Shown here: positions 873-57,834 of the stretch, one piece after another
Position numbering within the stretch: the first letter of the stretch is position 1
Layout: each line of letters opens with the position of its first letter
From: Chiloscyllium plagiosum
Taxonomy: Eukaryota
Length of the DNA: 64,000 nucleotides
Assembly: GCF_004010195.1 (NCBI RefSeq)
Contig: NC_057722.1
Location: 65,727,932-65,791,931 of the forward strand
Direction: 5' to 3'
Position numbers and translations under genes: made by a program
Notes under the pieces: generated by a model
What the model was told of the DNA's origin: nothing
Seen by the model: the letters and a program-made list of their open reading frames with translations, nothing else
Database searches by the model: none

Positions 873-918
873 CAGTCACCCTACTGTAAGCCAAGGGCAA
901 TTTCTTGCACTGTCAAAG

Positions 919-16152: not shown

Positions 16153-17720
16153 TTGGAAGTTCTGGTGTTGGACTGGGTGGACAAAGTTAAAAATCACACA
16201 ACACCAGGTTATAGTTATTTGGAAGCACTGGCTTTTGGAGTGCTGCTCCTTCATCAGTGGTTGTGGAGAATAAGATCATGTTCACAGAATTTATAGCCAA
16301 AGGAGTCCAGTGTCATGGAGATGTGTTGCAGTAAAACAATCTTAGATTAAAACTTTCATTTTTTTATAGTGGGATATGCTGGTTGTGTTCTTTGATATGT
16401 AAATCCCAGAGCTTCTTTAAAATTACATTCTCAAGACAGCTCAAGTTTTTAAACAATAGGTGTGAAGTCTGTCGGTGTCCCAATGCCATCTCAGATTGAC
16501 AAACCCTCTGTATAATTTTACAGAGTTTTACATGAATTCATGTAGGTTTTGAGCAAAATAAAATGTAATTCTGCTAAAACAAATTCACCCCATAAGCTTC
16601 TATGTGTGCACATATAGGAGCGACAGATTGAGTGTGCATTTGTGGGTGTGAATGCATGTGATAGAGAGAGAGTGTGTGTGTGTAAGCTTGCATAAGTGTG
16701 TGTATGAGTGTGATGGGGTATGTGTCTGTGAGAGGGTATATATGTCAGTGTAAGTGTGGGGAGGGTGTGCGTATGAGAGAGAATCTGCGTGGGTGTGTGA
16801 CTATATCGGAGTGTGTGTGCGTGTGTGGGGGGGGGGGGTTAACCTGTACTGTGACATGAACCCAAGGTCCCAGTTGAGGTCATTCCCATGGTTACCGAAC
16901 TTTGCTATCAGCTTCTGCTCAGCCACTATTGCTTGTCCCAAAGTCCGACTTGGAGGATGTTCATCCAAAGGTCTGTGGCTGAATGTCCCGGACCGCTGAA
17001 GTGTTCCCCAACCAGGAGCAAGCACTCCTGCTGTTGTGCAGTTCATCCATTGTCTTAGCGTCTGCTGGGTCTCGCCAATGTATCATGCCTCAGGGCATCC
17101 TGACTTGCAGTTTGTGAGATAGATAAGGTTGGCTGAGTCACATGAGTTCTTGCCGCATATGTGGTGGGAGATGTCCCCATGTGTAATGGTGTTAAAAGTG
17201 TTGATACTCTGACACCTCTTGTAGCAGCTGCTGTGGCAAAGTTGTACAGTGTTATACAAAGTCTGGGCAGTTTGCTGTGAATCATGGCATGTTTAAGGTT
17301 TGGTGGTTGTTTAAAAGTGAGAGATGGAGGCTCCAGGAAGGTCTTAGTGAAGTGTTCATCCTCATCGATAATGTGTTGAAGGCTGTGAAGAATAAGGTGT
17401 AGTCGTTCAGCTCCCGGGAAGTACTGGACAATAAAGGCTGGACAGAAGCTGATAGCAAAGCTCAGTACCCATGGGAATGGCCTCAGCCATGACCTTGGGT
17501 TCATGTCACACCACAGGTGAGCCCACTGCATGATATACATGCGCACACACGCAAGTCTACATATACATCCATGCAGGCCCCTTCTCTCTCTCATATGCAC
17601 ACCGACACACGCACCTCCTCATACATACCCCATCACACTCACACACACACACACATTTCACCAAGCTTGCACACACATATACACCCAACTGCCAAACACA
17701 CTTCCACGCAACTCCACCCC
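16153..17720 (-). mobile_element. Penelope-like retroelement (GIY-YIG end plus terminal repeat) with inverted partial duplication
   Basis: QYFPGAERL..LQHII..FKQPPNLK linker and EQKLIAKFG.H..LN.DLGFMS.Y GIY-YIG C-terminus; 17441-17720 is an inverted copy of about 16630-16920. Confidence 0.85.
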
Positions 17721-23000: not shown

Positions 23001-26000
23001 AGCATGGGTCCCTGAGTAATATTTATTGCCTAGATTCATTATCTTGGCTGTCATAACAGCTGAAATCAATGAAAGAAGCACTCAGTAATGAAGGTGGAGA
23101 CAGCTACCCCCTTCATTTGATACCTTAGATATCGTTAATAGACCAAAGGAGTTAATAACTGACTCATCAGGAGGCCTATCTTTTTGTTTTCTAATTATTG
23201 TTTTTACAATTCTGATTTCCAACAGGTCAGTTATTTTTCAACCTGTAGTTGTTTGAGCAACAAAAAAGAACATCCATCATTTTTCAGAACAATACCCAGT
23301 GATTACTTTCAGGCGAGGGCATTGGCTCAACTAGTGAAACATTTTGGATGGAATTGGATTGGAACAATCAAGAGTGACAATGACTATGGAAACTTTGGGA
23401 TGCAAGCGTTCACAGAAGCTGTCCAGCAGTTGGGAGTTTGTATTGCCTTTTCTGAGTCCTTTTGCAGAACATACCCTAGAGAAAAGTTACTCAGAACTAT
23501 TAATGTTGTGAAGGAAGCAAACACAAAAGTTATTGTGGCCTTTATTGCTAAAGGTGATATGGAAATTTTGCTAAAGGAGATTGCAAGACAAAACATCAAA
23601 GGCATTCAATGGATAGGAAGTGAAGCTTGGATTTCCACAACAATTCTTCCCTTGAAAGAAAGCCGAAGGTTTCTGACTGGAGCATTAGGAATTTCAATTC
23701 CTCAAGCAAACATCCGTGGTTTTAAGGCATTTCTGTACCAAGCACACCCTTCTGCAAACCCAGGAAATAGTTTACTCAAAGAATTTTGGGAAACAACCTT
23801 CAATTGTCATCTAAGCTTGGCAGGGAATCAGGCAAATGGAACAGAAGAAACTTCTGAATGTACAGGCCAAGAGAGTTTGCAAACCATTAAAAATATCTAT
23901 ACTGACACATCTCAGTTGAGAGTTACATATAATGTGTACAAGGCAACACATGCTATAGCTCATGCTCTGCACCACATGCTCAGATGTAACACTGTGGACA
24001 AGGCATCCTGGAATAATACATGTGACAATCTGTCCAATTTTCAATCACAACAGGTATTGAAACTATTTTACAGTTGAAACAAAATCTTACTGTGTTCCAA
24101 TTATATTCATGGTAGGACAGAAAATAAGGTTCAAATAGTTGTTTCTTTTTTGCAGTTCATGCTATTTCAATTGTTTTCTCTTAAAGCTTTTGCAATACTT
24201 GAAAATGGTCAATTTCACCACTATGACTGGAGAAACGGTGCACTTCAATGAAAATGGGGATCCCATTCCAAAGTATGACATTGTAAATTGGCAAAGCACT
24301 GGGGATGGCACTGATGTAGTAACAGTAGGATATTATGATGGATCTGCAACTCCAGGTGAAGAATTCTCTATTAATGAAGAATCAGTTGTTTGGAGTGATG
24401 GGCGAAGAAAGGTAATTTAAAATTTATTGTTTTGATATCTTTCTTTTTGATCTTTCAGGTCAGATAAACTAGTTCTCAATAAATAACCATTGATGAGGCA
24501 GGGAAGGCAATAAAAATACAGCTTCTTGTCCAATTAATCTTCATGTACACCCTCACATTTACAATGGCTATTCTGTGAGGGTGGCGCAAATGGAATAAGA
24601 CAATAGCAATTACTATGAGGAATCAGATTAAAATACTTTTGCTAGTAATGCAGAACCCTGAACTACTAATGTTATGGTGCATTTAAATAGCAATATGGCT
24701 GTTGGCAATTTTAAATTCAGTTAATTTAAAAAATCTGGCATGAAATTTCTATAAATTCTTATAACAAATCAAACTGGTTACCTATTATTCTGTAGGGAAG
24801 AAAATATGCTGTGTGGCCTGACTCCAGATCCACAGTAGTGTGTTTGAGTCATAACTATTCTGTGAAATAGCCTAGATAGCTATTCAGTTGCCACCAGTAA
24901 CTCTGCAAAGATTAATTTCCAATAATACCCACATCCTGTGAATAAATAAATACCAATGACTTATGTAATTCACAGAAGAATCTTCCTATCATAGCTCAAA
25001 CAAAAACAAAATACTTTGGATATTGGAAATCTGAAATAAACCCACAAAATACTGGAGAAGCTCAACAGATCTGGAAGCATCTATGGAGAGAGAACTTGAG
25101 TTGCTATGAATCTGCATTGGAAGAACGTAAATTATTGTTTCTATCTCCATAGAATCTGCCAGACCTCCTGGGTTTTTCCAGCATTTTCTGTGTTTGTTTC
25201 CAATATAGGTCATCTGGTAGCTCCCTTACATTTGTATATCATTTAACTGGATGTTCGCAGCCACCTTTTTGGTGGAGACACTACAAATCTAAATCAAGCT
25301 TTGATCTCAAGGACATTTGTGACTTTTGTGACATTAGTCTGTGCTTTTCATCTCTAGACCAAACTTTAGATCGTGCAAAGCTCTAAACATTTATTAATCT
25401 CATTTACATAAGGTACCACAGGCAATTTGCTCTGAAAGTTGTAAACCTGGAACAAGGAAAGCTGCCAGAAAAGGGCAGCCTATTTGCTGTTTTGATTGTG
25501 TAGAGTGTGCTGAAGGGGAGATCAGTAATATTACAGGTATATAAATACATAAACCCACATATGTACTTAACTATTCATGCATTTTAACTTATTTATATCA
25601 TTTTAATTTTTAGAAAAAACTTTATTTCATGTACTTGTGCTTATTTTAAATAGATTCAATAACGTGCCTAAAATGTCCTTGGGATTATTGGCCAAATGAA
25701 CAGCGAAACCAATGCATACCGAAGATGACTGAATTTCTCTCCTTTGAGGAGATCATGGGGATCGTTTTAGTGACACTGGCATTACTTGGAACTGGCTTCA
25801 CTGTGTCTGTAACCGTAATTTTCTGTGTTCATATCAACACTCCCATTGTTAAAGCCAACAATGCAGAATTAAGCTTTCTGCTTCTTTTTGCTTTAGTGCT
25901 GTGCTTTCTCTGCTCAATAACATTCATTGGAAAACCTTCAAACTGGTCTTGCATGTTACGCCACACCATGTTTGGTATTACTTTTGTTCTCTGCATTTCC

Positions 26001-26555
26001 TGTGTTTTGGGCAAAACCTTGGTTGTAATGATGGCCTTTAATACAACCCTTCCTAATAATAACATGATGAAGTGGTTTGGGCCAGTACAACAACGTCTGG
26101 CCATTTTCATCCTTACATTTATACAATGTCTAATATGCATGGTCTGGCTAATTACATCACCACCCTATCCACTGAAAAATGTGAATTATTTTAAAGATAT
26201 TATTATTTTAGAATGTGATGTTGGGTCTGTGACAGCCTTTTATTTGGTTCTTGGTTATGTAGGATTTTTGTCTTGTGTTTGTTTTGCGGTTGCCTTTTTA
26301 GTCCGTAGACTGCCAGATAATTTCAATGAAGCTCAATGTATTACTTTTAGCATGCTTATATTCTGTGCAGTTTGGATAACATTCATTCCTGCTTATCTAA
26401 GTTCTCCTGGCAAATACATGGTGGCTGTAGAAGTGTTTGCCATTCTGGCATCCAGTTTTGGTCTACTTGTCTGCATTTTTGTTCCTAAATGTTACATTAT
26501 CCTACTACAACCAGAGAAGAATACAAAGAAACATTTGATACACAAAGTCACTTGA
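19859..26555 (+). CDS. V2R/OlfC-family class C GPCR, gene 2; join(19859..20064,20408..20690,23226..24053,24187..24411,25413..25536,25654..26555), 2568 nt, 855 aa
   Basis: Same six-exon structure, intron phases and motifs as gene 1; joined frame is open. Confidence 0.95.
20408..20690 (+). CDS. V2R gene 2 exon 2
   Basis: Acceptor tttgtag|; [20 protein letters not shown]; donor |GTAAGT. Confidence 0.93.
20752..20877 (+). mobile_element. Penelope-like terminal fragment with hammerhead motif (GAAA changed to CAAA)
   Basis: cac-CTGACGA-a-ggagc-agc-gctcc-CAAAGCTAG followed by the family tail. Confidence 0.75.
20880..21560 (-). mobile_element. Decayed CR1 3' end interrupted by a Penelope fragment (about 21200-21345, + strand)
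   Basis: CR1 3' motifs on both sides of ccacCTGATGAaggagcggcgcccc. Confidence 0.55.
22290..22750 (+). mobile_element. CR1 LINE 3' fragment
   Basis: [27 protein letters not shown]. Confidence 0.8.
23226..24053 (+). CDS. V2R gene 2 exon 3
   Basis: Acceptor aacag|; VSYFSTC..FQSQQ; donor |GTATTG; 828 nt. Confidence 0.93.
24187..24411 (+). CDS. V2R gene 2 exon 4
   Basis: Acceptor ttaaag|; [18 protein letters not shown]; donor |GTAATT. Confidence 0.92.
24630..24950 (+). mobile_element. Old SINE, second family (also about 53390-53730 on the - strand)
   Basis: Inverted similarity to 53390-53730; 3' end cccacatcctgtgaataaataaa resembles the LINE tail at 6400-6478. Confidence 0.55.
25010..25205. 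repeat. Decayed palindromic Penelope-associated element
   Basis: Left arm aaaatactggagaagctcaacagatctggaagcatctatggagaga pairs with right arm tatctccatagaatctgccagacctcctgggtttttccagcatttt. Confidence 0.7.
25413..25536 (+). CDS. V2R gene 2 exon 5 (Cys-rich domain; absent from the ORF track)
   Basis: Read by eye as [41 protein letters not shown]; 124 nt. Confidence 0.93.
25654..26555 (+). CDS. V2R gene 2 exon 6 (7TM domain)
   Basis: Acceptor aaatag|; 7TM segments; TGA stop. Confidence 0.95.
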
Positions 26556-36549: not shown

Positions 36550-36788
36550 ATGACCTCTGGTGCCTTGTTACACATTATAATGTATTACTCGTTTATCTGG
36601 GTGGTTTGTATTGTCATCCCTTTACTGGGAGCAGATGAATCAATGTGTAAGCGTTCCGGTGAGTTTTATTTGCCAGGTCTCTATGAAGGTGGAGACATCA
36701 TTATTGGAGGAGTATTTCCCATCTATAATAAAGAATTGAAAATAAGTAAGTCTTTTACAACTCATCCACCACCTTCAGAGTGTGCCAG
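36550..36788 (+). CDS. V2R gene 3 exon 1
   Basis: Hydrophobic leader, [12 protein letters not shown]; donor AG|GTGAGA; start is either 36550 or 36580. Confidence 0.88.
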
Positions 36789-39700
36789 GTGAGATTGTGT
36801 TTAAACTCTCTGGTTAATTTAGAAGTTCAGAATTGAGTTCATTAAAGCAGTTAATAAATGTCTTGTTAACTTTGAATATTAATCTTTGTGTTGTTTAACT
36901 GTAATATGTATTTGCAATCTGTTTCATTCATTTGTATTCTCAAATTCACTGGGAGTCACCAGACAGTAGAATCCAGATTATGATCCAGAAATTGTTAAAT
37001 TTTAGAAAGTTTTAACGTTATCAGGTTAATTTGTGCACATGTACTATACCAATGTGATTGTTTAGATATCATGTTCAACTTGAAGTATCTCAATGTTGAG
37101 AGTCATTTTAATCTTTTTGCTTTCCTTTTGGAAGTGTCAAAGTCTCCTTTGGTTTATAAAGTTGCATTACCTCGCTCTGTCATTTGTGTTCTACCATTTC
37201 CTTCAGTGTTACTACTGTCAATTCAAATTGTGTAAAGTTTAATGCAATAAAATTTATGGGCACATTTTATCACTGTTATCCTGCAGTTTTGATCTCAGAG
37301 CATTTCGCTGGACACTGGTCATGATTTTCGCAATAAAGGAGATTAATCAGGATTCAAAGATACTTCCAAATATCACACTAGGCTATCGAATTCATGATTC
37401 CTGTGCTTCACCATCTCAGGCTCTCAAAGCAGCCCTGACACTGGTAAATGGACAAGAAAAAAATATTCCAGAATTTAATTGCAAGGGAGGTTCTTCTATT
37501 GCAGCCATCGTTGGAGAGTCCGGATCATCACAGTCGATAACCATAGCAAGGGCAGTCGCATCGTTTGGTATTTCAATGGTAAGGCAATTCAATAAAAGCA
37601 GTTTTTGCAAACAGAACAGATTATTAATGGCCTTGGTTTCAGTCTTGACTAACAGAAATCCATCAATCTTGGTTTTAAATTTTTTGATTCCACTCCCCAC
37701 GCCCCCGAACCCCCTCTTCCCCTCCCCCCCCCCCCATCTTTTTGGTAAAGAATTCCAGAATCTCACTTGCAATTATCAAAAATGTGCATTCTGAGAATGT
37801 CATGAATTGTCTAAATCTCATTTTGAAATTTCCCACTATGCCTGTTAGTTTTCTCCCACCTCCCCAAACTCCTGCACCCTTCTTCTGGACTCTGGCACGA
37901 AAAGATCTAGTCAAACAAATCTGAATGGTTACGCAACTAATTTGCATTATGATCAAAAGTAGGTAATGAGAAACTGGCAAGGTGGCTGATTACCAACAGA
38001 AGCATATTTCAAGTAATTGACAAGAGGATGAGGTAGCAGGTGGGAGGTTTATATTTTTATGCAGAATTTTATGAGCTGGTATACATTGCTTGGAACATGG
38101 TGGTAGCAGCTGGAATGGTGAAAGGTTTGGGAACTAAATTCTAGAGCTTTAGCTGCATGCAAAGGGAATTGGGGATGTGCAAAAAGAGCATGAAGATTTG
38201 AAATGTTTTAGTCTGAATCTGGAAACAGAGAATAATAAGCACATTCAGAGATTTGAAAACAAAGCTGAGGGTGTTAAAAGTGAGGCACTAACAGATTACA
38301 AACGCGGGGCAATGGTGAAGAGTTCTGTGCAAGTTTGGAATTGGGCAGCAGAATATTGGATTTCAATCTGCAGGATGGAAGATCAGAGACCGTGAAAATT
38401 CAAAACTCAAGGTAACAATTGAAACAGCATCAGCAGCAGAGTAGCTGGGGCACGGAACACAGTTGTGTAATGACATAAAAGGGAAAAGTAGGTGATGTGG
38501 GTGGAATAATGGATATGTGTTCAGAACTTCACTCTGATGTCAAATATGATACATGTTGTCAGGTTGGGCTCAAAGAGTTGCTTGGGAAATGATGGAGTCA
38601 TTAGCTGGGTAAGAAATTTATAATGGTGGCCAAAGACAATGACTTCTGCCTTTCTGGTACTTGGTTGGTGGTAATTTCTACTTACCTTTAGTGGTTATTG
38701 GGTAATCAGCAGTAAATCATTGCAGGGATCAAGCAACATAATGACACATTAGGACAGACCAGAATATAAGTGGGACCTGATATGATTCTGGATGATATTG
38801 CTAAAGGGTGTGATGTAGATAATCATCAGTAGGAGACAAGGACTTCAGATGTAACATCTGAAACATAGATGTAGGTTTGCTCGCTGAGCTGGGAGCTTCA
38901 TTTTCAGATGTTTTGGCACCATACTAGGTAATATCTTCAGTGAGACTCCAGATGAAGCATCTGAAACATGTTTGAAACATCTGGAAAAGACATCATTGCA
39001 AATGATTCTCTGACTATCACCTGATGTATTAAAAAAATTGCATCAGGCTAGGATTGCTCCCACCAGATTGGATGATAGAAGAGACGTGATGGAGGAGGAT
39101 AATTTGAGTAGCTGTGTCAGAAGTTATAGATAGGTTGAGTAAAGTGAGGAGGGATGACTTATCAAAGTCACAATTACGTAGGTTGAAATTTCAAACTTTG
39201 ACAAGAATAATTCCACAAGTGGGGCAGGCGCTGAAACAGGTGCTTACACATACAATTTGGCTCAGTCTCAAACTTTGGACATTAAGAGCAACACGGGCGA
39301 TGGGGGAGAGCGAGGTGGGAAGATGGGGAGAGTGGGGTGTGGGGAGATAGGGAGAGCTGAGGGCTTACAGGGGAACAGCAGGAGAGTGAGGTGAGGGGAA
39401 GGTGGGGAGAGCAGGGGGACAGTGGTATATCAAAGGTAGATTTTTCATGGGGAGGGTGGCGTGGGTGTATATTACACTTTACAAACAGCACTCAAATCAA
39501 CGATAAAAATGGATGTTGCTGGAAAAACTTAGCAGGTTTGGCAGCATCTGTGAAGAGAAATCAGAATTAACATTTGATGGATTACTCGACCCAAAACATT
39601 ATTTATGATTTCTCTGCACAAATGTTGGCAGACCTGCTGAGCTTTTCCAATAAGCCCTGTTTTTGTTTCTGATTTGAAGTATCCATAGTTTTTGTTTTCA

Positions 39701-42700
39701 GGCCTGCTTCCACACTGTAGGGAATCTAATCTAATGATTTTGTTGGTAATCTATTTCGCATCTGAACATCATAAAGTAAGTACTGCTGTCCCTGGGCTTA
39801 TGACTTGTGGATGGGCTGGACACAGCAAAGACCGGAACAATGGGTGATGGAGTGCAAGCCCATAAGGGAGAAAGCTCCTAATTTCACATTGATTAGGCCA
39901 TCAATGGAAAAGCATAGCAGTTCAGGCAGCACCCGAACTGCTGTGCTCTTCCAGCACCACTAATCCAAAATCTGGTTTCCAGCATCTGCAGTCATTGTTT
40001 TTATCCATCAATGGAAAAGCCCTAGATTACCAACTTTACACATCAAATTGCATAGAATTCCCACTCCTTCACAAGGGGCCATTTCATTCTTTGTGGATGG
40101 AAAACGCCCAAACAAAACCAAAATAACCAGTGATAAATAATTAAAACATTGCCATGACTTCGGTTGTCAGAATGGTAACTTTGACTAGAGGTGGCATGGT
40201 GGTTAAATGGTTTGCAGTGGTGCCTCATAGTGCCAGGGATTCAGATCCAACTTTGTGCGACTGTCCATGTGGAGGTTGCATGTTCTCCTCATGTGTGTAG
40301 GGGGTTTCCTTCCACGTCTAAAGATGTGCATGTCAAGTGAATTGGTCATGCTAAATTTCCCCTGTAGTGTCCAGGTGTTGGTGAGTTTGTCAAGGTAAAA
40401 ATGGCATGTGGGGTTACTGGGAGGATGGATCTGGATTGGATGCTCTTTGGAGGGTCGATTACTTTTTGATGGGCCGAATGGTCTCTTGCTGCAGTGTAGG
40501 GATTATGACTCTTATTTAGGGAAGTACTTATCTCTTGATCTCAGTTCCATTCAGAAGCAGGTTGTGATTTCCCTTGAATCAAATGCATTTTGTTATTGGT
40601 ATCTGCAAACGTAACCTTATCCATCATATTTAACAAAATTGTTGGTCATTCGTCTCAACTATCAATATTTAGGCTTCACCCAAATTTCTTTCCCCCTTGC
40701 TTCATCTGGTCGATACAAACACCTGCTAGCCTTATGTACTGATCTAATTTCCCACTAAATAAATCAATGCTTTTCCCCTCAGCTACCTCACCTTGTAACA
40801 TGTTCCACCCTATCAGTCATATCACGAATAAGGCTATCTATCTTAATATGGAGAGTTTATTGTTATTTTTATTCAAATCATTGCAGGTCAGCTATTTCTC
40901 TACCTGTGCGTGTCTAAGCAACAAACAAGAATTCCCTACGTTTTTCAGGACTGTGCCAAGCGATTTGTTTCAGGCCAAGGCTTTAGCTCAGTTTGTGGAA
41001 CATTTCGGTTGGACCTGGATCGGGACCATTGGAGGGGACAATGAGTACGGTCGGTATGGAATCCAAGCGTTCAGCGAGCTCGTCCAGCGAGCTGGAGTCT
41101 GTATCGCTTTCTCAGAAACGATTCTCAGAACATATTCCAAAGAAAGAATACTCAAGATTGTAGGCACCATAAAAATGTCGACTGCAAAGGTTATCTTGGC
41201 TTTTGCTTCCGAAGGTGACCTTTACCCGTTGCTGAAAGAAGTTGTCCGTCAAAATATCACTGGCATTCAGTGGGTAGCCAGTGAAGCATGGATTACAGCG
41301 GCACGACCTTCAACAAAGGGTAATTTCAAGTCTCTCGGGGGAACAATTGGATTTGCAAATCGCAAAATGGCAATCCCAAAGTTTAAAGACTTTCTTCTGA
41401 GTCTACGCCCTTCAATACATTCCACCAACGATTTTGTGAATGTTTTCTGGGAAACGATATTTGGTTGCACGTTTAACAGAAACAGCTCCGTCTTCCGCAC
41501 CAAGAAATGCACTGGACGTGAAAAATTACAAAAGGTGAAGAACTCTTTCTTTGATGTAACTCATTTGAGAGTTTCCTATAATGTCTACAAAGCAGTTTAT
41601 GCCATAGCTCATGCACTCCACAGTTTGCTATTTTGTGAAGATGAACTACTGGGAGCCTATCTTTGCGCTAATGTTTCCAATATCGAACCATGGCAGGTAA
41701 GAGGAATGAATGTTATATCAAACACTGATTTGGAGATGCCGGTGTTAGACTGGGCTGTACAAAGTTAAAAATCACACAATACCAGGTTATAGTCCAATAG
41801 GTTTAATTGGAAGCACTAGCTTTCTGAGCGCTGCTCCTCCACTACCACCTGATGAAGGAGCAGCGCTCGGAAAGCTAGTGCTTCCAATTAAACCTGTTAG
41901 ACTATATCCTGGTGTTGTGTGATTTTTAACTTTGTATCAAACACTGTAATGTAATGTCTATCTTAAATATGCAGATCCATAAACCGTACAAGTTGACTTG
42001 CATCGTTAGAGTGATGCATTGCAAATTATAATTAAAAAATATTTTATCTCAACGTTTACAAATAAATAAGTTCATTTGTCAATGTCTGGGCACTATAAAA
42101 GAAAATGGATCCAAACTATTACCATTCTATTCCGTTAACTTTGGAGAGCTGAAACATTAATATCTGGCTAGTGCTGCTTTAAATGATCTGGCAGCTCGGT
42201 GCTAGCATTTTGTTGACAACTCAGAGATTATGAAGATGTAAGAATTGACCCTAATTTTCTATGCAGTGTACGGGGATAGGAATGAGCTCTGTTCAAATCT
42301 AAATTTTGGCAAAATGCTATGGATCATAGAGTCCCTACAGTGTGGAAACAGGCCCTTTGGACCAACATGTCCACATCGACGCTTCGATGAGTAACCCAGC
42401 CCCTACCCTAGTACTCTACATTTACAACCTTACCTACACATCCCTGAACACTATGGACAATCTACCTAACCTGACATCTTTGGATTGTGGGAGGAAACTG
42501 GATCACCTGGAAGAAACCCACGCAGACATGGGGAGAATATCCAAATTTCGCACAGACAGTTGCCCGAAGATGGAATCGAACAAAGGTCTCTGGTGCTGTG
42601 AGGCCCTCATGATACACCAGACTCAAACCGATGATTCTGCTTCTCTCTCCATGGGTGCTGCCAGACCTGCTGAGTTTCTCCAGCATTCGCTCTATTTGTT

Positions 42701-45700
42701 TCTGCTGGGATTGCATCTCTTTCAATTTTTTTTTAATGAAAGCACACAGACATATCCACTAGTGAATAGTTGATTAATCTACTGAAGAGTGAGCAACAAT
42801 ATGGTAAACAGAAACCTGCTCAAGTTAAAGCTTTTGGTTACCAGAGAAAATATAAATGACCCCAGGTGGGCAGGGGTGAAGGGCAATAAGATTCCAGTTG
42901 AAAATTTGCACTTACAGTGGCTTTCATCACAGAAATCTAGTTTTGATTCTGTGTTCAGACACCTAGGCAGGGAGAAACAATGCCTAAATTTGTGAAAAAA
43001 AAATGTTTCTAAGCTCTGCAGTTCTTTCCCTAAGTCTGTTTGTTTTTCTACCTCCATTTGCACATTTAAGACATCCCTGTAAACCAGACTGTTTTGGTCA
43101 GAAATCTATTAACTCCTTACATAATTGTGTTAAATTTTGGATGTAAGCAAAGCCTTCAACGAGGTTCTACATGATATACTGGTTAGTAAAGTTAGATCAC
43201 ATGGGATCCAGGGACAGCTTGCCAACTGGACACAAAATTGGCTGATGGTAGGAGACAGAGGGTTGTGGTGGAGGGTTGTTCTTCAGATTGGAGGCCTGTG
43301 ACCAGTGGTGTTCCGCAAGGATTTGTTCGAGGTACACTTTTATTTGTCATTTATATATTGGATGAGAATATAGCAATCATGATTAGAACATAAAACATAG
43401 AAAAGTACAGCACGGAACAGGCCCTTTGGCCCACTATGTTGTGCCAAGGGTTAATCCTAATGTAAAGTAAAATAATTTAATCTATGCACCCCTCAACTTA
43501 CTGCTACCCATTAGTAGGTTTGTGGATGACTCCAAAATTGGTTGTACATAGAACATAGAACAGTAGAACATAGCACAGGGCCTTCGGCCCACAATGTTGT
43601 GCCAAGCATTTATCTTAATCTAAGATCAACCTAACCTACATACCCCTTAATTTACTGCCGTTCATATGCTTGTCCAGCAGTTGCTTAAATGTCCCTAATG
43701 TCTCTGACTCTACGATCACTGCTGGAAGTGCATTCCATGTGCCCACCACTCTCTGCGTAAAGAACCTACCTCTGATACCTCCCATATACCTTCCTATCAA
43801 CTTAAAATTATGGCACAGTAGAAAGTGAAGAAGGTTTTTTGAGAGTACAACAGGATCTTGAACAGTTGGGCCGCTGGGCTGACAAGTGGCCGATGAAGTT
43901 TAATTTCGATAATGTGAGGTTTTGTGTTTTGATAAAACAGAAAAACCGAGGGATTCTCGTCCATTGTTCCTTGAAACTGGCATCACAGGTTGACACTGTG
44001 GTGAAAAAGGGTGCCTTTATTAGTCAAAGCATTGAATATAGGAGTTGGGACATCATGTTGAGGCTGTACAGGACATTGGTGAGACCACGTTTGGAGTTCT
44101 GCCTACAGTTTTGGTTGCCAAATTGGCAAGGATGCAGAAAAGATTTACGACAAAGTTAATGGGACTAGACAATTTGAGTTACACTGAAAGGCTGGATAGG
44201 CTAGGACTTTTATCCCTGGAGCATAGAAGGTTAAAGGGTGAACTTGGAGAGGGTTTTAAAATCAGGACAGAAATAGATAAGGTGAATAGTAAAAATCCTT
44301 TTCCTAGAGTAGGGGAGTTCAAAACCAGAGGGCATACATTTAAGGTGAGAGGGAAAGCTTCAAAAGGGATCTTAAAAGGCACAACCATTTGCACAAAGAA
44401 TGTTTCGTATGTGGAATGAACTGCCAGCTAAAGTGGTAGAGGCAGGTACAGAAACAACATTTAAAAGACTTTTGGAGATGTACATGAATAGGAAAGGTTT
44501 AGAGGCATGTGGGCCAAATACAGGCAAATGGGACTAGTTTAGTTTGGGAAACCTGGTTGGCACGGATGAGTTGGACCAATGGATATGTTTCCATGCTGTG
44601 TGACTCTATGACGGTATGAATTATTCTGTGAAGCATTTTGGGAAAGGTGCTATGTACATGCAAATTATTGTTGCCACTGTTATAGGCACTTTTTAAAGCT
44701 ACAAGTGGATTATGTTAGTTCAGTAGACTAATGAACACATTACCATGTCCATGAATTATTTTGAGTAACTAAACATTCCGTTCTAATTACTCCTCTAAGC
44801 TATTTCAGCATTTAAAAGAAGTAAGATTTACCAACCGCTTTGACGAACACATATATTTTGATTCAAATGGAGATCCCACTGCATCATATGATATTATAAA
44901 CTGGCAGATGAAGCAGAATGGTTTGGTTGAACATGTAACAGTTGGCTATTTTGATGCATCTGCAGCAACTGGAAATAAGTTTATGATAAATGAAGATAGT
45001 ATTATATGGCATGGGAACAAAACAAAGGTAAGATCAATGCTTCTTTGTTCAATGAATTGTTTTGTTATTAGTGGAAGGAGCTAGATCATTCACAGATGAT
45101 ATCATAAAACTATTTCTTCATATCAAAGGTAATGGAAATCAAAATAATTTACCCAAACAGGAAACCATTTGAGCCATTGTATTTGTGTTGTTTCTTTGAA
45201 AAGTTGCCCATTTAGTTCCCCTCCTCTGTTCATCTCTTCCACAGTATAATGACCTTCTTTCAAGTATGTGTCTAGCTCCTTTTTGAAAACTGTTGCTGAA
45301 TTTGCTTCCAAAGTCTAATATCTGAAATTGGCCATCCACAAGATGCTGTGGGCCATCAACAGCAGCAGCAGAATTGTGTTGATTCAAATCAATAACCTTA
45401 AAACAGTGCATGTTCCTCATGGTATCATTATGAACAAACTAAGGAATTAACCCTGATCCATTTAGTAGTGCAGGATAGCAAGCCAGGAATAGCAATGCTT
45501 GGCTATGAACCATGACAGGTGTCATATCTCAGTGGGAGAACATTTTGGTGATCGTGATCATAACTCCATGACCTTTACTATACTCATGGAGAGGCATAGA
45601 AGCAGATGGTATGGAAAAGTAAAGAATTGGGGGAGGGGGAATTACAATCCTATTGGGCAGGAACTGGGGCACTTAAATTGGGAACATATGTTCTCAGGAA

Positions 45701-48700
45701 AATGCACAAGAGAAATGTGGAGGTTATTCAGGAAGAACCTGCTGATAGTGTTGGACAAGTTTGTCCCACTGAGGTAAGAAAAGGATGGTAAGTTGAAAGA
45801 ACCTTGGGTGACAAGGGATGTGGAACATCTAGTCAAGAGGAAGAAGGAAGCTTATTTAAGGTTGAGGAGACAAGGATCAGAAAGGGCTTTACAGGGTTAC
45901 AAAGTGGCCAGGAAGGAACTGAAGAATGGACATAGGAGAGCTAGAAGGGGGCATGATAAAGCTTTAGTGGGTAGATTTAAGGAAAGCCCTAAGGTGTTCT
46001 ACACTTATGTGAGGAACAAGAAGATAGCCAGAGAGTATGGCCAGTCAGGGATAGTGGAGGGAACTTGCGCCTGGAGTCAGAAGAAGTAGGGCAGCTTCTT
46101 AATGAATACTCTGCTTCAGTATTCACAATTGAGAGGGACATTGACATTTCTGAGGACAGCATGAAACAGACTGATATACTAGAACAGATTGGTGTTAGGA
46201 AGGAGGATGCACTAAAAGTTGTGAAAAAGATAGGATAGATAAATCCGCTGGACCGGATGGGATATATCCTAGGTTTGGCAATGATGTTTGTATCCTTACT
46301 CTCCACTTGAGTAGTACCAGATGATTGGAGGTTGGCCAATGTTATTCCCTTGTTCAAGAAAGGAAGTAGGGATAATCCTGGGAATTACAGACCAGTCAGT
46401 CTTACATCAGTGGTAGGCAAAGTATTGGAGAGGATTCTGAGAGACAGGATTTATGTTTACTTGGAAAACCATAGTTTAATTCGAGATAGTCAGCATAGCT
46501 TTGTGAGGGGTTGGTCATGCCTCACAAATCTTATTGAATTCTTTGAGGATGTGACAAGGGTTGAGCAGTAGATGTGGTGTACATGGATATTAGCAAGGCA
46601 TTTGATGAGGTTCCCATGGTAGGCTCATTCAGAAAGTAAAGAGGCAAGGGATACAGGGAAACCTGTCTGTCTGGACACAGAATTGGCTGGCCCATGGAAG
46701 ACAGAGGGTTGTGGTAGATGAAAAGTATTCAGCCTAGAGTTCAGTGACCAGTGATGTTCCTCAGGGATCAGTTCTGGGACATCTGCTCTTTGTGATTTTT
46801 ATAAATGACTTGGATGAGGAAGTGGAAGGGTGGGTTAGTAAGTTTTCCAATGATGCAAAAGTTGGTGGAGTTGTGGATGGTGTAGAGGGCTGTTATAGGT
46901 TGCAATGAGACATTGATAGGGTGCAGAACTGGGCTGATAGGTGGCAGGTAGATTTCAACCTGGAAAAGTATGAAGTCATCCATTTTGGAAGGTCAAATTT
47001 AATTCAGAACACAGGCTTAAAGGCAGGATTCTTGGCAGTGTGGAGGAATAGAGGGATCCCTCAAAGCTGCCACCTAGGATTGTTAAGAAGGCGTACGTTG
47101 TGTTGGCTTTCATTAGCAGGGTAATCGAGTTTAAGAGCTGCGAAGTTATGCTGCAGCTCTATAGAATCCTGATCAGACCACACTTGGAATATTGTGTTCA
47201 GTTCTGGTTGCCTCTTTCTAGGAAAGATGTGGAAGCTTTAGAGAGGGTGCAGAGGAGATTTACCAGGTTGCTGCCTGGATTGAAGGGCATGTCATATGAA
47301 GAAAGGTTGAGGGAGCGAGGGATTTTCTCATTGGAGTGAAGAAAGATGAGAGGTGACTTGATTGAGATGTACAAGATGTTGAGGGGCATAAATTGATGGA
47401 TAGAAAGAGACTTTTTTCTCATGGCAGAAATGTCTATTAAGAGGGGACATAATTTTGAGATAGCTTGAGGAAGGTTTAGGGGAGAAGTCAGAGGTAGGTT
47501 CTTTACTCACAGAGTGGTGGATGTGTTGAATGCACTGCCAGCAGTGATAGTAGAGTCAGATACATTAGGGACATTCAAGTGACTGTTGGATAGGCACATG
47601 GAAGTTAGTACAATGTAGGGTATGTAGATTAGTCTGATCTTAGAATAGGATAAAAGGCTGGCAGAACATTGAGGGCTGAAGGGCCTGTACTATTCTATGT
47701 TCTTTATTCTAAATGAGATGCCAACCTTGTGAAACTGCAACACACAATTACTTTTGTGCCAAACAGCAGAAACAGTGAGTGATTGATAGGTCTTAGAAAT
47801 TCCCAAACCAATGGATCAGATCATTATTTGGCAATCCTGTCACATTGAAATAACAAAATGAGAAACCTCTACAAATGTTTGCAGTCAAAAATGATGGGGG
47901 TGTCTGACACATTAGTTGAAACTTTTGTAGTCATCTTCAGCCAGAAGTGCCAAATGGTTCATTCATCTCTGAGTCTTTCTGATTATGACAGTTGCCTGTC
48001 TTCAGAAAATTCGATTCACTCAGTATTAAATCAAGAAACAACTGAGGGCACTGAATATCTGTAGGCAACATTCTGATAGTGATAATGAAGACCCGTTCAC
48101 AAAGCAGCACAGTTGATAAGCACCCAATCTACCACCTTAAACAGATATACACTCCACTAGGGGTACAGACTGTGAACCATCACAAAAGTATACTACAGCA
48201 TGACCTAATGCTTTCTATAACAGCAACTTCGACATCTGTGACCTCTGCCATCTACAAGGACACTATAATAGATCCAGTCATACAAAAGCTTCTATCCAAG
48301 TCATGTGCCATCCTGACTTTGAAATAAAGAGATTAGGTCGCCATAGTCCCATTCCCTCATTAGAGAGACAATTGGTGGTGAGGGTCACCATGCCTCAGGA
48401 AAGGGACAAGGTTGAAAAGGTGGGAACTTCATGGGTGAGGACCTCAGCTGGTACGAGAATTGAGTCCATGCTGTTGGTGTCATCACAAACTGAGCTACCC
48501 AACCTTTAGTTTGAAATATATTAATTTTTCTCATTGTCACACTGTCAAAGTCCTGGAATACCCTTCCAACAGTTCTGTATATTTTCCTGCACGGTATGCA
48601 CAGTAGAAAATCAAGAGAAGTGCTCATTGTGCCTTTCTCAAGGTAAAGGTGAAAAATAAATACTTTGATGTTTATGGGAGCTTCCAAAAACCTTTTTCAT

Positions 48701-50823
48701 CATGGGCATCTGGAAATGCCACACCACAAAAATAAGTGTCATAAAAAGCCATCTCACTGCTGCCTGGGTCTGTGAACATGTCAATCCCTGCTTCAGAAAA
48801 AGGCTAAAATGACATTGATTGTAATCCAAGGCTATCTCTATATGTTACCCACAATCTATAAGTGCACTTCCTTTACAATGTGCTACCTTCATAATTTCAT
48901 GCCCTACCATTCAGTGAGCTTTCCATTGTGTTGGTACTCACCAATTACTTTAATGCAAGGTCTTGTGTTGATCGTGGTGCAAAGCCGCACATCCAATGCA
49001 TCTGGAAGTTAAAGAAGATTCCTTATTTATATTGTATAATATAAATACTACATCACCTTCCCCTTCCAATTACTTTTTATTTTAAAAATATTAATTTTAT
49101 TTTTGCTTTTGTATGAAGGTCCCACAGTCTGTATGCAGTGAAAGCTGCCCACCTGGTACAAGAAAAACTGTACAGCACAGACAACACACATGCTGCTTTG
49201 ACTGCATACCATGTTCTGAAGGTGAAATCACCAATGCAACAGGTCAGCAAATGTCATTTTACCATTTGATGAAAAGATATTTCATTTTTTAAAGAAGTGC
49301 CGCATTTTTTACAAGAGAAATGCAGGATAACTATATTAATGTGAAGGGATTAGATAAGGGGAAACTGTTTCCACTGTTAAGAGGGTTAGGACACAGATTA
49401 AGGCAATGGCTAAAGAAGTAAACAGAGGAGAGATTGAGAGAATGATCATTTTTACACAGGGAACAGTTTTGATCTGGAATGGACTGCCTGAATAGGCAGA
49501 TGGATGCAGATTCAACTTTCAAAAGATAGTTGGACGTATGTAATAGTAAAGAAAAATGACGAGAGAGCGGAGAGTGCAATTTACAAAGAGCCGGCACAGG
49601 GATAATGGGCTGAGCAGCCTACTTCTGTACTGCAAGGTTTTTTGATTCCAAGAATAACTTAAACTTAAACCTAACTTAAACAAGTTCGTTTAACTTTAAA
49701 CAACTTAAACAAGTCCAAAGATGTGCAGGTCAGGTGAATTGGCTGTTCTAAAATTACCCATAGTGTTAGGTGCATTAGTTAGAGGGGAATGATAATGGGT
49801 GGATTACTCTTTGGTGGGTTGGTGTGGACTTGTTGGGCCAAAGGACCTGTTTCCACGCTGTAGGGAATCTAATCTAATCAAGTATCTATCACTGATTACA
49901 TTCTCCTAGATTCACTAGAATGCACGAAATGCCCCCTGGAATACTGGTCAAGCAATGACAGCCAAAGATGTATACTGAAAGAAATTGAGTTTCTCTCCTT
50001 TGAAGATACCATGGGAATTATCCTGATGATGGTGGCATTATTTGGAGCATGCATCACTTTGATTATTGCTTCTGCATTTCTTTATTATAAAGATACCCCC
50101 ATCGTCAAAGCTAACAACTCTGAATTAAGCTTTCTGTTGCTATTTTCATTGGCACTTTGTTTTCTGTGCTCACTTACATTTATTGGTGAGCCCTCAGTTT
50201 GGTCTTGTGTACTGCGGCACACAGTGTTTGGCATTACGTTTGTCCTTTGCATGTCCTGCATACTAGGGAAAACTATTGTCGTGCTCATGGCATTTAAGGC
50301 AACTGTTCCTCAAATGAATATGATGAAATGGTTTGGGCCTGTGCAACAAAGGGCCATGGTGTGTGCATGCACTTTCATCCAAATTCTCATATGCATCATC
50401 TGGCTTGTTGTTGCTCCCCCTTTCCCAACAAAATATACAAAATATCATAATTCAAAGGTTATTTTGGAATGTAATGTTGGGTCTCCAATAGCCTTCTACT
50501 GTGTATTGGGATACATTGGTATTCTAGCATGTGTGTGTTTTATGCTAGCTTTTTTGGCAAGAAAGCTGCCAGGCAATTTCAATGAAGCAAAGTTCATAAC
50601 TTTTAGTATGCTCATCTTCTGTGCAGTGTGGTTAACATTCATTCCAGCCTATGTAAGCTCTCCTGGCAAATATACAGTTGCAGTTGAAATTTTTGCCATT
50701 TTGTCATCTAGCTTTGGTTTACTTTTCTGCATTTTTGGTCCAAAATGCTACATTATCTTATTCAAACCAGAGAAAAATACAAAACAGAATCTGATGAGGA
50801 AAATTCCTTCAAAAAGGCTTTAA
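36550..50823 (+). CDS. V2R/OlfC-family class C GPCR, gene 3; join(36550..36788,37287..37578,40887..41696,44800..45027,49119..49242,49910..50823), 2607 nt, 868 aa (alternative ATG at 36580)
   Basis: Same six-exon structure and phases; joined frame is open; introns enlarged by transposons. Confidence 0.94.
37287..37578 (+). CDS. V2R gene 3 exon 2
   Basis: Acceptor ctgcag|; [20 protein letters not shown]; donor |GTAAGG; 292 nt. Confidence 0.93.
38868..38960 (-). mobile_element. Short element with decayed hammerhead motif (third family)
   Basis: Reverse complement of 38905-38942 reads CA-CTGAAGA-T-ATTACC-TAGTAT-GGTGC-CAAAACATC-TG. Confidence 0.5.
39295..39467 (+). repeat. G-rich purine low-complexity tract
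   Basis: More than ten GGG-or-longer runs with short spacers. Confidence 0.8.
39510..39690. repeat. Decayed palindromic Penelope-associated element
   Basis: ggaaaaacttagcaggtttggcagcatctgtgaagagaaatca pairs with tgatttctctgcacaaatgttggcagacctgctgagcttttcc. Confidence 0.75.
39914..40004. mobile_element. Collapsed palindromic element flanked by a 16-bp direct repeat
   Basis: CCATCAATGGAAAAGC at 39898-39913 and 40005-40020; insert is similar to the 56572 family. Confidence 0.8.
40188..40512 (+). mobile_element. HE1-like SINE, full length, decayed
   Basis: tRNA-like head, central domain, gggccgaatgg tail. Confidence 0.8.
40887..41696 (+). CDS. V2R gene 3 exon 3
   Basis: Acceptor ttgcag|; VSYFSTC..IEPWQ; donor |GTAAGA; 810 nt. 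Confidence 0.94.
41728..41934. mobile_element. Palindromic Penelope-derived element with 12-bp TSD
   Basis: TSD TATCAAACACTG at 41716-41727 and 41935-41946; about 80-bp near-perfect inverted arms 41758-41838 and 41856-41936. Confidence 0.9.
41846..41880 (+). ncRNA. Minimal type-I hammerhead ribozyme motif
   Basis: CAC-CUGAUGA-A-GGAGC-AGC-GCUCG-GAA-AGCU-A/GUG: helix I CAC/GUG, helix II GAGC/GCUC, palindromic helix III AGCU, NUH = CUA. Confidence 0.7.
42324..42605 (-). mobile_element. HE1-like SINE
   Basis: Colinear with 57835-58150; followed by a Penelope-associated arm at about 42620-42725. Confidence 0.85.
43130..44610 (+). mobile_element. CR1 LINE fragment carrying two nested antisense CR1 3' pieces (43387-43509 and about 43548-43812)
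   Basis: VTSGVPQG codons, [32 protein letters not shown]; the inserts start with (AGAACAT)n tails. Confidence 0.88.
44800..45027 (+). CDS. V2R gene 3 exon 4 (absent from the ORF track)
   Basis: Read by eye as [45 protein letters not shown]; 228 nt; donor |GTAAGA. Confidence 0.9.
45500..47710 (+). mobile_element. CR1 LINE, 5'-truncated, disrupted (gene 3 intron 4)
   Basis: [46 protein letters not shown]; tattctatgttc tail. Confidence 0.95.
49119..49242 (+). CDS. V2R gene 3 exon 5 (Cys-rich domain; absent from the ORF track)
   Basis: [41 protein letters not shown]; 124 nt; donor |GTCAGC. Confidence 0.92.
49712..49879 (+). mobile_element. HE1-like SINE, 5'-truncated
   Basis: gtccaaagatgtgcaggtcagg..cctgtttccac..aatctaatctaatc. 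Confidence 0.85.
49910..50823 (+). CDS. V2R gene 3 exon 6 (7TM domain)
   Basis: Acceptor ctcctag|; 7TM segments; TAA stop. Confidence 0.95.
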
Positions 50824-53800: not shown

Positions 53801-55789
53801 TCTACTGAATTGCAAAATAACTCTTGGTAAGCCAATGGAGTCAATTCAATATTTATGAAAAGTGCCCACTTTGTGGGGCATTATCTTCTAAGAAGGATTG
53901 TTGGATTAATATGGAAGTTAGCATTTCATAATTAACTTAGCTTAATTATAATGGCACAATCTAATTGGATTGATTGATTCAATATTTCTGTTTAATTCTG
54001 ATCAATGTAGATATTGATGCTATAATATCAGGTAACTGTGCTTAGCCTCCCTTGACAAACAAATGCAACATGGTATTGCAAAGAGTGAAAACAATTCAAT
54101 GATATTTTAGAATTATAGCTAAAAGGTCAAGAAATCCCGATTTAGCTTATTTCTATTTAATGATTTTGAAATCACCCAAACTTCCAAGGTTGAATAAGGT
54201 AGAGTTGGTATCCTCCTTATCTGGTTTGTAAGTCCTTATCAAAAAATTATAACCACAACTCTTCCCCTGGTGAGTTGTAGAGTACTGGTATTTTAAATTG
54301 TTTCAGAAGGGAAGTAATTATTGTAACTAAACTTATCATTTTTACCTGGTGTAACCTTTATATTAGTCATGATTTGGAGATGCCGGTGTTGGGTTGAGGT
54401 TAACTTTGTGAAGTTGTAAATCATTTTGACTTCCATCACTCAAGAGCACATGTTGAAGAATATTTCACTACTTCACTCTTTATGCAGTCTCATTGTTTTG
54501 ATTAATACTTTGTGATTTTTTTGGTCTTACACAGTTTTGAGGTTATGAGAAGCTTTTTGTACAATATCTTATTATAATAAAATGACAATCTCCAGCTACT
54601 CAGTAACAGAGTCAAAAAAATCACCAAACAAGTGACTTTATGAAAAAGAAATCAGTCATTAGTGTCTAATTTAACGTGAGATTTGCCAATTCAGATTGAG
54701 ACGGTGATCCCAGAAGTATCAATCGGTGGGTTTTGATTTTATATACCTCTCACTTTTCAAAAAAAAGGTTAAGAAAATTTCAAAATATGAAAACGTCATC
54801 AGGCAGCAATGAAGAGACTGCAATGAAGCAATAGGGCGTATAGATAAATAACAACTTAAGGAACAGTCAGGAAGTAATGGGAGGTGATATTAGTCAATAC
54901 CAATCACTGTAAGAACTGATTAGAGATTGATTATGCATTCCTTAAAACAACTGGCAATAAGCCTTGCCTCAGCTAGGCGGATCAGACTATGTAATTATTC
55001 ATGCTTTGGAAAGAATTAAAATGCAACAAACTTCAGAGATCAAAGTGCAAAAAAAGTTTGAAGTAAAGGCATCCTCCTGTCCAAATAGAAGCATAAGGCA
55101 CTTGGGTGTTGCAGAGAGACAAGAGACAATGTTTTTGAACCACGCTGAAATCAGAACTTGAAGGCAAAAGTCGTAGTACACCCACAAAGTTGCTGCCCTA
55201 CTTTGATTAGCATTGTTTATAACTTCCATTTCTGAGTTACTGCATTACTGTTGGTTATAGTATCAAATGAACATTGGGATTTGAGATTAAATTGTAATCT
55301 AAAACTTACAATTGTAGTTAAAAACTAAGTGGTGAATTTTCACAAAAAAATCTTTAACATTCTGATTCCAAATAAAACTTTTGCAATAGCTTTTCACAGC
55401 TGTTGGTAGCTCGTTAAAGAGACAGAGCACTATGACCTCACAATTTTTAAACCAATTTTGCATTTTTAAAACTTTATTTATTTTGTGGCGGTGAGCTGTC
55501 TTCTTGAACTGCTGCAGTCCACCTGTTGAAGGTTGACCCATAATGCCATTAGGTCGGGAATTCCAGGATTTTAACCAAACATTTCACCATAATTGACTTC
55601 ATTTATCTCGCAGATTAGTAATAACATGATAAGATCCCAGTGCTAATTGCTGTATCCAGATCAAAAAATTCACTTAATCTGTGGATCAAGTGAGAGGTGC
55701 TAAGTGTTTTCTTTTGTCATCAGATACACAAGTAGTTTGACTATACAGTCATAAAAAGAGTTCACCAATCTCATCACCATGCTCTTACA

Positions 55790-56090: not shown

Positions 56091-56571
56091 TCTTGACTCT
56101 GATTAATACCTGTTGTTGGCTCAATTTCTTTTTAATTCCAACATTTTAATTTATACAGGGTGATCTTCCTCTCTATGTGATTTGATTGAATATTTCTCTT
56201 AAAGCTTCTCTGGCATTCGATGTGATTCTGCTTTAATTGTTTTCTCAAGGTTTTAACCTCCCCCTGATTCTTTTTCACAACATAATCAGATTTCTGAGTA
56301 TGGTAGTATACTCCAAATACCAGAAGGCCCACTGCCATTTCAACTTTTAACTTCTTGTCCATCTGTCCCTGGACAAATACTTTCTCTAAGCATGCTGCGA
56401 GTAGTGTTTGAGCTCTTTTACTAGACAGATTGACCAGCCTCAATTAATAGAAAGAAAAGAAATTTCAACTGACAACTAAACAGTAATGTCCATGTCACTT
56501 ATGGATTTGTAAAGATTCTACAACCTTTAAGCTTCCCTTTCTCAATAGGACTGCTGGCCAGGCAGATTCAC

Positions 56572-56791
56572 TGATACAGGAGAAAGTGAGGACTGCAGAT
56601 GCTGGAGATTACAGTTGAGAGTGTGGTGCTGGAAAAGCACAGCAAGTTAGGCAGCATCTAGGAGCATGTGAATCGATGTTTCAGGCATAAGCCCTTTATC
56701 CTGATGAAGGGCTTATGCCTGAAACATCGATTCTCCTGCTCCTCGGATGCTGCCTGACCTACTGTGCTTTTCCAGCACCACGGTCTTGACT
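56572..56791. mobile_element. Palindromic short element with central hammerhead motif (second family)
   Basis: Inverted arms 56623-56696 and 56707-56781; possible TSD cagattcac/caaattcac. Confidence 0.85.
56698..56731 (+). ncRNA. Minimal type-I hammerhead ribozyme motif, slightly decayed
   Basis: AUC-CUGAUGA-A-GGGC-UUAU-GCCU-GAA-ACAU-C/GAU: helix I AUC/GAU, helix II GGGC/GCCU; helix III ACAU is one change from palindromic ACGU. Confidence 0.65.
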
Positions 56792-57834
56792 CAAATTCAC
56801 CAAGGTGTTTTGTTACACACCAGATATTCCCATTCAGTCTCAAATCACAGTGACTTAATCAATTCCATAAGTTTTAAAGAGCATAAACAAGGAAAATAAA
56901 AATAAACTGGTGGATGAACTTTAAAGGAAAAAGAAATATTACTTCCATGGTAATCTAAAGATCTTGTTACAGAATTCACTTCACTTTGCAATTTTCTGAA
57001 CTTTTATCTTGTCATGCAAGAGTATAATGTACTGAATTACATTTCTCATATATTAGAGTGAACAATCATCCCTCTCATTATTATTGCTGCTAATGGAAAT
57101 AAATAATGAGATAATGAGCTCAAAAGTATTGAAAATTGGGTCCTGACTGCATTTGCCTCTCTTTTCTAAAGCAAAGGAATAAAGAACATTTCAGGTATTT
57201 TCCAATCAATGTGTCATGAGGATTGCATTATTCCCAGGTCAAACCAAGATTACTTCTCCACTATTAGATCCTTCTGATATTCACTTGACTGAACCAAATT
57301 CATCTATTGAAAATGTTATGCACAACTTGATTTTAAATAATGCACTATAGAAAATAAACAATTCAAACTAAATTGTGATATGATTAAATAAGTATATAAC
57401 CCTTTTAGCAGCTGTTTGCCATGTACCATACCAATGGTGGACAGCATATGTGATGACTAATTGCTTAAGGCACTTTTTAGCTGTGGTTCAATAGTTGAAC
57501 TTTCTCAATTGGACCTTTAAACCAGTAAGTTTGTACATCAATGCATGGATTACATTGTGCAATACCAATGGTAAGGAAAATGTTGATATCATAAACCAAG
57601 AAATTAATGAATTATGATGGAACACAATATACAGAGAATTCAGAGAAATACAGAGAAAACTCATTCCAATGAGTTTTTATTTGCTTATATTCAATATTAT
57701 ATGTCAGACATTTCTTTTCCCAGAGTAATGAGCCTCTGGAATACATTGCATGAGAATGTGCTGGGTGCTGACTCTCTGCATTATCTTCAAGAATAATGTG
57801 GACTGATTCTTGACTGTGCAAAGGATCCCATCAT

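Follow-up and report, generated by a model that had tools for sequence, protein, structure and literature searches.

Shortly behind the 5' splice site of a V2R/OlfC-type gene of the shark Chiloscyllium plagiosum lies a palindromic insert with a hammerhead motif, which raises the questions of how such a structure was assembled and whether it matters for the gene that harbors it. The whole stretch of DNA analyzed here (64 kb, hereafter the window) contains three tandem V2R/OlfC-type genes of six exons each on the plus strand (871-7999, 19919-26555 and 36580-50823). Exon 3 of gene 3 (40884..41696, plus strand) encodes the ligand-binding domain of a class C GPCR (Pfam ANF_receptor, E 1.8e-51) and matches a Chiloscyllium punctatum gene model at 96% and a zebra shark gene model at 91%; 2644 relatives passed the search, and the best 120 of these were mostly named CaSR-like or V2R-like. 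According to the exon map, exon 3 is followed by the 5' splice site CAG/GTAAGA (41694..41702, plus strand) of intron 3, which extends to about 44800. All six exons of gene 3 are free of in-exon stops, and an apparent stop in exon 1 was rejected, as its position lies past the exon end. With the donor GT at 41697, the insert is located within intron 3 in sense orientation, 31 nt downstream of the V2R donor, as the initial annotation had placed it.

The insert is bounded by an exact target-site duplication (TSD) of 12 bp, TATCAAACACTG, present at 41716-41727 and 41935-41946 on the plus strand and absent from the remainder of the 64-kb window on both strands. Between the two copies lie 207 bases, which confirms the extent originally proposed. 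The last 2 nt of the left TSD also fit the end of the element tail, and likewise at the right joint 2 bases fit both target and element. An inverted-repeat comparison yielded arms of 84 nt at 41758-41841 and 41853-41936 (93%), and alignment of the insert with six other copies of the repeat in the window defined the asymmetry between them. The truly homologous part of the arms comprises 41758-41838 and 41856-41936, in which 76 of 81 sites are alike and five differ. The earlier description of two inverted arms of roughly 80 bp holds for this part, but the insert is more than two arms, as 41728-41757 (minus strand) is a 30-nt Penelope 'tail' found on the left arm only. This tail was identified by alignment with the copies at 16153 and 20755, and in other family copies the loose ends behind 41935 run on into the same tail sequence. 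The left arm (41758..41838, minus strand) is a 5'-truncated pLTR copy that starts at helix II of the hammerhead and lacks the CUGAUGA box. The right arm (41837..41936, plus strand) is a 5'-truncated, tail-less pLTR copy in sense orientation that holds CUGAUGA, ends 30 nt short of the tail end and shares its last 2 nt with the right TSD; family alignments of read contigs on this arm also start at 41837. At the head-to-head junction (41837..41841), 2 nt fit both arms exactly and four of the five nt fit overall. With 19 nt (41837-41855) exclusive to the right and the 30-nt tail exclusive to the left, each arm contains sequence missing from the other, so neither is a plain copy of its partner. The insert has no ORF and is decayed by about 4%. 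Its predicted fold is a hairpin of -151.6 kcal/mol (z -19.15) with paired runs of 43, 7 and 29 bp, and none of 200 shuffled sequences was equally stable, in agreement with the hairpin inferred in the initial annotation.

The arms match the end of a GIY-YIG element elsewhere in the window (79-82% to 16153-16268), as had been noted before. This element is a decayed, 5'-truncated Penelope-like copy of the same repeat family (16153..17677, minus strand), consisting of a tail, a pLTR, the end of a GIY-YIG ORF and an inverted ORF-derived arm (17429-17677), and the repeat of the insert caps it at 16153-17440. In a HMMER search, its broken frame matched 60 proteins, including an 881-aa reverse transcriptase (RT) protein, and one relative contains RVT_1 together with GIY-YIG at 22.5 bits, compared with a cut-off of 22.6. 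Pfam searches of the window's own broken frames gave no match, none of 36 candidates was recovered when the broken GIY-YIG frame was used in a word-indexed protein search, and no RT sequence of the repeat family is present in the window. The Penelope-like origin suggested initially is nevertheless upheld, as the repeat end caps an element that in its relatives encodes RT plus a C-terminal GIY-YIG nuclease. Furthermore, a cysteine motif preceding the nuclease is clear in four of the five relatives aligned and degenerate in the window copy. A Zn-finger-like linker between RT and the endonuclease (EN) characterizes the Neptune and Nematis clades in the available text of PMC8557442, and by this source the cysteine linker of the ORF relatives may point to Neptune or Nematis.

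The insert combines an RT/GIY-YIG element end, an inverted 5'-truncated copy, a tail at one end only and a short TSD, which are the features of EN+ Penelope-like insertions. Penelope-like elements often have a 5'-truncated copy in inverted orientation next to their 5' end, and a tail of 30-40 bp is frequently confined to one end (PMC8557442, accessible text). pLTRs in inverted orientation, one of them with a 31-bp tail, have been described with a 15-bp overlap and 9-10-bp TSDs, and self-priming was proposed for them (PMC3846280, excerpted text). The head-to-head inverted copy, one-arm tail, few-base junction overlap and short TSD of the shark insert resemble these complex insertions (PMC3846280, PMC8557442 and PMC2377424, as far as their accessible text goes). 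Unlike them, the shark insert has neither an ORF nor a direct pLTR between its arms, both of which are stumps of about 100 nt, and its TSD measures 12 bp rather than the 8-10 bp of the rotifer cases in the same texts. The insert consists of two 5'-truncated Penelope-like repeat ends joined head-to-head within the 12-bp TSD, and we consider it likely that the structure was built once, in a single old integration. It is an ordinary member of the described class of Penelope insertions, old and probably inert.

The step by which inverted Penelope copies arise is described as still undefined (PMC8557442, accessible text). For the insert, we consider a two-primer scheme likely. The GIY-YIG nuclease would cleave the two strands of an AT-rich target at positions 12 nt from each other, and each 3' end would prime reverse transcription on uncut element RNA. 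One priming would occur at the tail start site and the other at a tail-less site 30 nt further in, each with a 2-nt match to the target. Both cDNAs would end at the hammerhead or immediately 5' of it and would then be joined via a microhomology of about 5 nt. The use of two primers is derived from in vitro experiments on the lizard Poseidon element, which belongs to a different clade. In these experiments, AT-rich sites were cleaved on both strands, uncut RNA served as template and reverse transcription began at two sites bounding the tail; the lizard element is modelled as a dimer (PMC11167929, available text). The shark family resembles Anolis Poseidon, as portrayed in that text, in its two clusters of 3' ends a tail-length apart and its AT-rich target, and also in a template uncut by its own hammerhead, as both insert arms reach 5' of the cut site. 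In contrast to Poseidon, the ORF relatives of the shark family carry the cysteine linker before the nuclease, and inverted products are not reported for Poseidon in the available part of PMC11167929.

Read contigs of the repeat family provided a further view of these ends. The stretch is contained in 20 of the 24 runs listed, from three organisms, and four runs were analyzed: X5 (organism A), X9 (organism B), X15 (organism C) and the single-cell poly(A) run X21, of which 2 in 100 reads were read. Contigs matching the stretch numbered 43,995 in organism A, 50,627 in B and 25,730 in C, nearly all on the insert, and flank depth was 10-21. The repeat family is very large; the requested genome-wide count is represented by these tallies of tens of thousands per shark run, which count contigs and not copies. 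Among the 24 of 1178 end entries listed, family ends occurred at 41726 in 500 (X5), 853 (X9) and 752 (X15) contigs, and at 41759-63 in 162 (X5), 338 plus 291 (X9) and 218 plus 250 plus 197 (X15). These two clusters, at the tail end and at the tail-less end, are those predicted by the two start sites of PMC11167929 (available text). Some family copies extend a few bases past the tail end at 41726 into a possible sense-strand ATG, perhaps an ORF start. A 22-nt arm motif was found at 0 loci in viral, genome and metagenome contigs.

A conceivable though clearly less probable origin is a one-off snap-back, in which cDNA started at the tail-less site folded back via 41837-41841 and copied itself, with a second priming adding the tail. 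The short unique spacer and the shorter folded-back arm, here as well as in a fold-back at 56.6 kb, fit such a course, and so does the reading of junction palindromes and head-to-head Penelope repeats as products of self-priming in the accessible text of PMC3846280. The ORF-derived inversion at 17429 in the GIY-YIG element likewise begins at a short internal match. Snap-back alone, however, does not account for the 30-nt tail, which requires a second priming in any case; the two together would produce the same sequence.

Four further fold-backs were identified in the window, at 56.6 kb, 39.5 kb and 25.1 kb and inside the GIY-YIG element. The one at 56563..56800 belongs to a second hammerhead family and repeats the anatomy of the insert, with a 9-nt TSD (one mismatch), a 36-nt left-only extension, arms that meet at the hammerhead core and a T at the helix II closing position. 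Within the GIY-YIG element, ORF sequence is inverted head-to-head (16675-16931 and 17429-17677), and this inversion fades in a CA-rich tract. The fold-backs at 39492-39677 and 25033-25200 are older, 68% alike to each other, and derive from a third repeat family with solo copies near 2550-2630, 18711-18830, 42634-42704 and 62211-62325. In addition, a bare tail at 54365-54410 continues into roughly 10 nt from the end of the opposite arm; it is possibly a minimal or collapsed fold-back, and no TSD was found for it.

The initial annotation regarded the insert as a non-autonomous fold-back Penelope derivative. Its derivation from Penelope stands, but mobility as a unit was not supported, as other copies turn elsewhere and the pattern is that of an ordinary Penelope integration product. 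It is improbable that the palindrome is itself a retrozyme- or MITE-like element, transcribed and re-inserted whole by Penelope protein. Turning points do cluster at the hammerhead, so that some of the copies may have been propagated as a unit; the insert center is crossed without a gap by one contig of organism B, the right end leads back into a tail in a few contigs, and pLTRs are able to mobilize other sequence in trans (PMC3846280, excerpted text). On the other hand, relative to 41869, summed depth at 41836 was 0.37% in X5, 0.34% in X9 and 0.27% in X15, an upper bound for center-crossing contigs. Of the 24 long pieces listed, eight cross the center, seven of them with gaps of 2-8 letters. 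Eleven of the 15 joints listed (of 510) lead from the left to the right arm, leaving it at nine different places over 41772-41813, and ten of these 11 land at 41844-51, a crowding partly due to the reference ending there; joints called at 85% likeness from short sides are prone to noise. The ends of the insert are asymmetric, unlike terminal inverted repeats. The insert resembles non-LTR retrozymes, as presented in the accessible text of bioRxiv 10.64898/2026.07.22.740005, in being non-coding, hammerhead-bearing and pLTR-derived. Retrozymes are head-to-tail tandems with a ribozyme per unit, whereas the shark insert is head-to-head with one broken core, and identity with non-LTR retrozymes was rejected on this basis.

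The right arm contains a minimal type-I hammerhead motif (41846..41880, plus strand), composed of helix I (41846-48/41878-80), CUGAUGA (41849-55), an extra A (41856), helix II (41857-61/41865-69), GAAA (41870-73) and GCUA (41874-77), with a predicted cut after 41877. CUGANGA, GAAA and NUH boxes, an extra base after A9 and a palindrome at 15.2-16.2 are all present. The core recognized in the initial annotation therefore stands with regard to its boxes, minimal type-I architecture and cut site, with CUGAUGA confined to the right arm, but its helix II is defective: position 11.1 (41869) is G, so that helix II closes with G-G and the conserved G10.1-C11.1 pair is lost in the insert copy. Loss of this pair lowers hammerhead activity. 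In the family (depth in X5), C accounts for 65% and T for 34% at 41869, the rest being 1.3%. The two arms carry different transversions at this same family position (41825 and 41869), the C of a CpG at hammerhead 11.1, where the family varies mostly from C to T. Folded alone, the motif is predicted to keep only a 4-bp stem (-4.1 kcal/mol). The sequestration of the ribozyme in the hairpin, proposed at the outset, agrees with a predicted helix II probability below 2e-18 in the pre-mRNA context and a predicted cost of 50.3 kcal/mol for forcing helices I and II to form in place of the hairpin.

A minimal-hammerhead descriptor, composed after the motif had been seen, gave one match in the window if the closing pair was allowed to mismatch and none if pairing was required, compared with none in either setting on 100 shuffles of the 64 kb. 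With regard to the hammerhead search recommended in the initial annotation, Rfam gave nothing at gathering score in the window. Eight weak Rfam matches in 41700-41960 included no hammerhead and were set aside as generic hairpins, being mostly miRNA-type hairpin models far below threshold. A second same-strand hammerhead that could form a dimer was not found in the window: the left arm is antisense and without CUGAUGA, and the descriptor has no further match. Read ends did not accumulate at the cut site, which is not taken as evidence on cleavage, as short cut products would be lost. Metazoan Penelope-like elements carry comparable minimal type-I hammerheads, with CUGANGA and GAAA, an extra nucleotide between 9 and 10.1 and a palindrome at 15.2-16.2, and motif pairs on opposite strands 100-700 bp apart were described in the work that defined this class (PMC4209133, accessible text). 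The insert differs from the hammerheads in that text by its broken G10.1-C11.1, an opposite-strand copy without CUGAUGA and a helix I of 3 bp, and sharks are unnamed in the accessible part. There, G10.1-C11.1 is highly conserved, and minimal monomers are inactive while dimers show low activity; dimer cleavage (Lunse et al.) is also related in the review PMC6765202, and PMC544870 supports the weight of the pair indirectly, each in its accessible text. The hammerhead of the insert copy is predicted to be inactive. In X21, a subfamily with two extra bases right behind the cut site at 41877 made up 458 of 1819 reads and was rare in DNA depth; these bases would shift helix I.

The age of the insertion was assessed from junction contigs and sequence divergence. 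Both junctions are represented in organism B, one by a contig that leads from unique exon sequence to the tail and the other by a contig that connects the right arm with its flank. For organism C there is a left junction contig, its right flank being uncovered, and organism A (X5) has the right junction with 0 differences. The overlap of these contigs with the element is only 27 nt on the left and 23 nt on the right, short of a 31-letter threshold; they stop where the repeat begins to branch without running on into the far flank, and none spans the whole insert. An empty site was not seen among the contigs of the shark runs. Compared with the family majority, the insert copy differs at no fewer than nine (at least 9/207) sites (4.3%, CI 2.0-8.1%; among the 40 of 198 differences listed), and in the right flank 10 of 289 sites separate organism B from the window (3.5%, accumulated over two lineages; CI 1.7-6.3%). 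Against an old age, the TSD is still exact, which has a chance of about 0.34 at 4.3% decay. The junctions in two related species and the nine differences in 207 sites indicate that the insert is old, and the insertion likely predates the splits from these two species. The initial view of a young element was not supported, given the junctions in two other species and at least nine private changes; the insert copy is among the best-kept in the window, but it is not young. Absolute dating was rejected, as the pedigree mutation rate of 7e-10 per generation (PMC10587355, available text) gives 4-6e7 generations, too long for literal use.

The repeat also exhibits the anatomy of a poly(A) site (41887..41928, plus strand), with ATTAAA at 41887-92, tailing at 41904/41906 and a GU-rich tract at 41911-28. 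The hexamer has two main alleles in the family, AATAAA in 42-47% of depth and ATTAAA, the latter in the insert copy. X21 contained 2653 reads on the repeat, in which A-runs follow 41904 in 469 and 41906 in 509 reads (978 in total), at a distance of 12-14 nt from the hexamer. For reads whose first mate lies on minus, depth was 1272-1565 over 41836-41907 and 119 just after. These reads run through the hammerhead cut site uncut. None of the 2653 was at least 99% alike to the insert locus and none mapped to its flanks in the fraction of X21 read, so all of them derive from other family copies; three different upstream loose-end sequences suggest several loci. We read this pattern as a working canonical poly(A) site carried by the repeat family, although the A-tails may come from genomic A-tracts behind a few highly expressed copies. 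A report of Penelope with polyadenylation was not found in the literature searched, which excluded most subscription papers, and 'polyadenyl' is absent from the available text of PMC2377424 and PMC3846280. In the insert copy, the hexamer and GU tract are predicted to be fully paired in the hairpin.

In the V2R pre-mRNA, the insert would form an 81-bp stem that is removed with the intron, hiding both the ribozyme and the poly(A) signal of the repeat. That the hairpin bears on use of the adjacent donor, as the initial annotation contemplated, was not supported: no pairing between donor and insert was predicted in three folding windows, and the six exons are without stops. Retention of the hairpin for V2R regulation, whether through use of the donor, through editing or through a secreted ectodomain produced at a cryptic intronic poly(A) site, would be compatible with the origin proposed above and appears very improbable. 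An intact ATTAAA is present in the sense arm, which lies 140 nt beyond the donor, other family copies use the site, a read-through frame ends at a stop at 41766-68, and long paired runs together with the presence of the insert in related species would suit such a role. However, none of the five differences between the arms is compensatory on both sides, decay is like that of the flank, and such hairpins are common in the genome. Editing was suggested as a check; in X21, A>G changes occur at 21 places compared with 29 for C>T and 32 for G>A, all from other family copies and not from the insert locus. An assembly artefact is the least credible explanation: palindromes are a known form of fold-back chimera and no contig spans the insert, but its arms differ at 5/81 sites, a TSD bounds it, and junction contigs occur in independent runs (the right one in X5, both in X9).

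A reading that joins these observations, which we regard as a long shot, is that the poly(A) site works between the hammerhead and the two RT start sites and that head-to-head insertion always places an antisense arm upstream of it, on both strands, so that the hairpin muzzles the site during transcription. Introns in which a solo sense copy would cut the host transcript short would hence tolerate fold-backs, and opening of the hairpin, e.g., by editing, would give a secreted V2R ligand-binding isoform ending just inside intron 3. A solo sense copy with tail is located at 20755-20875, about 64 nt after the donor of exon 2 of V2R gene 2, and its poly(A) hexamer is mutated, a single case in line with the masking idea.

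As one of very many such scars, this locus by itself carries little weight. With a poly(A) site in the repeat, many 3' ends of shark transcripts would be repeat-derived and element RNA would be cut ahead of its start sites, a possible contribution to the excess of short stumps. The asymmetry of the insert, in which one arm has the tail and the other the additional 5' bases, with 2-nt target matches at both joints, cleanly records two priming events, and a shark assembly contains enough stumps for testing how Penelope elements make inverted copies.
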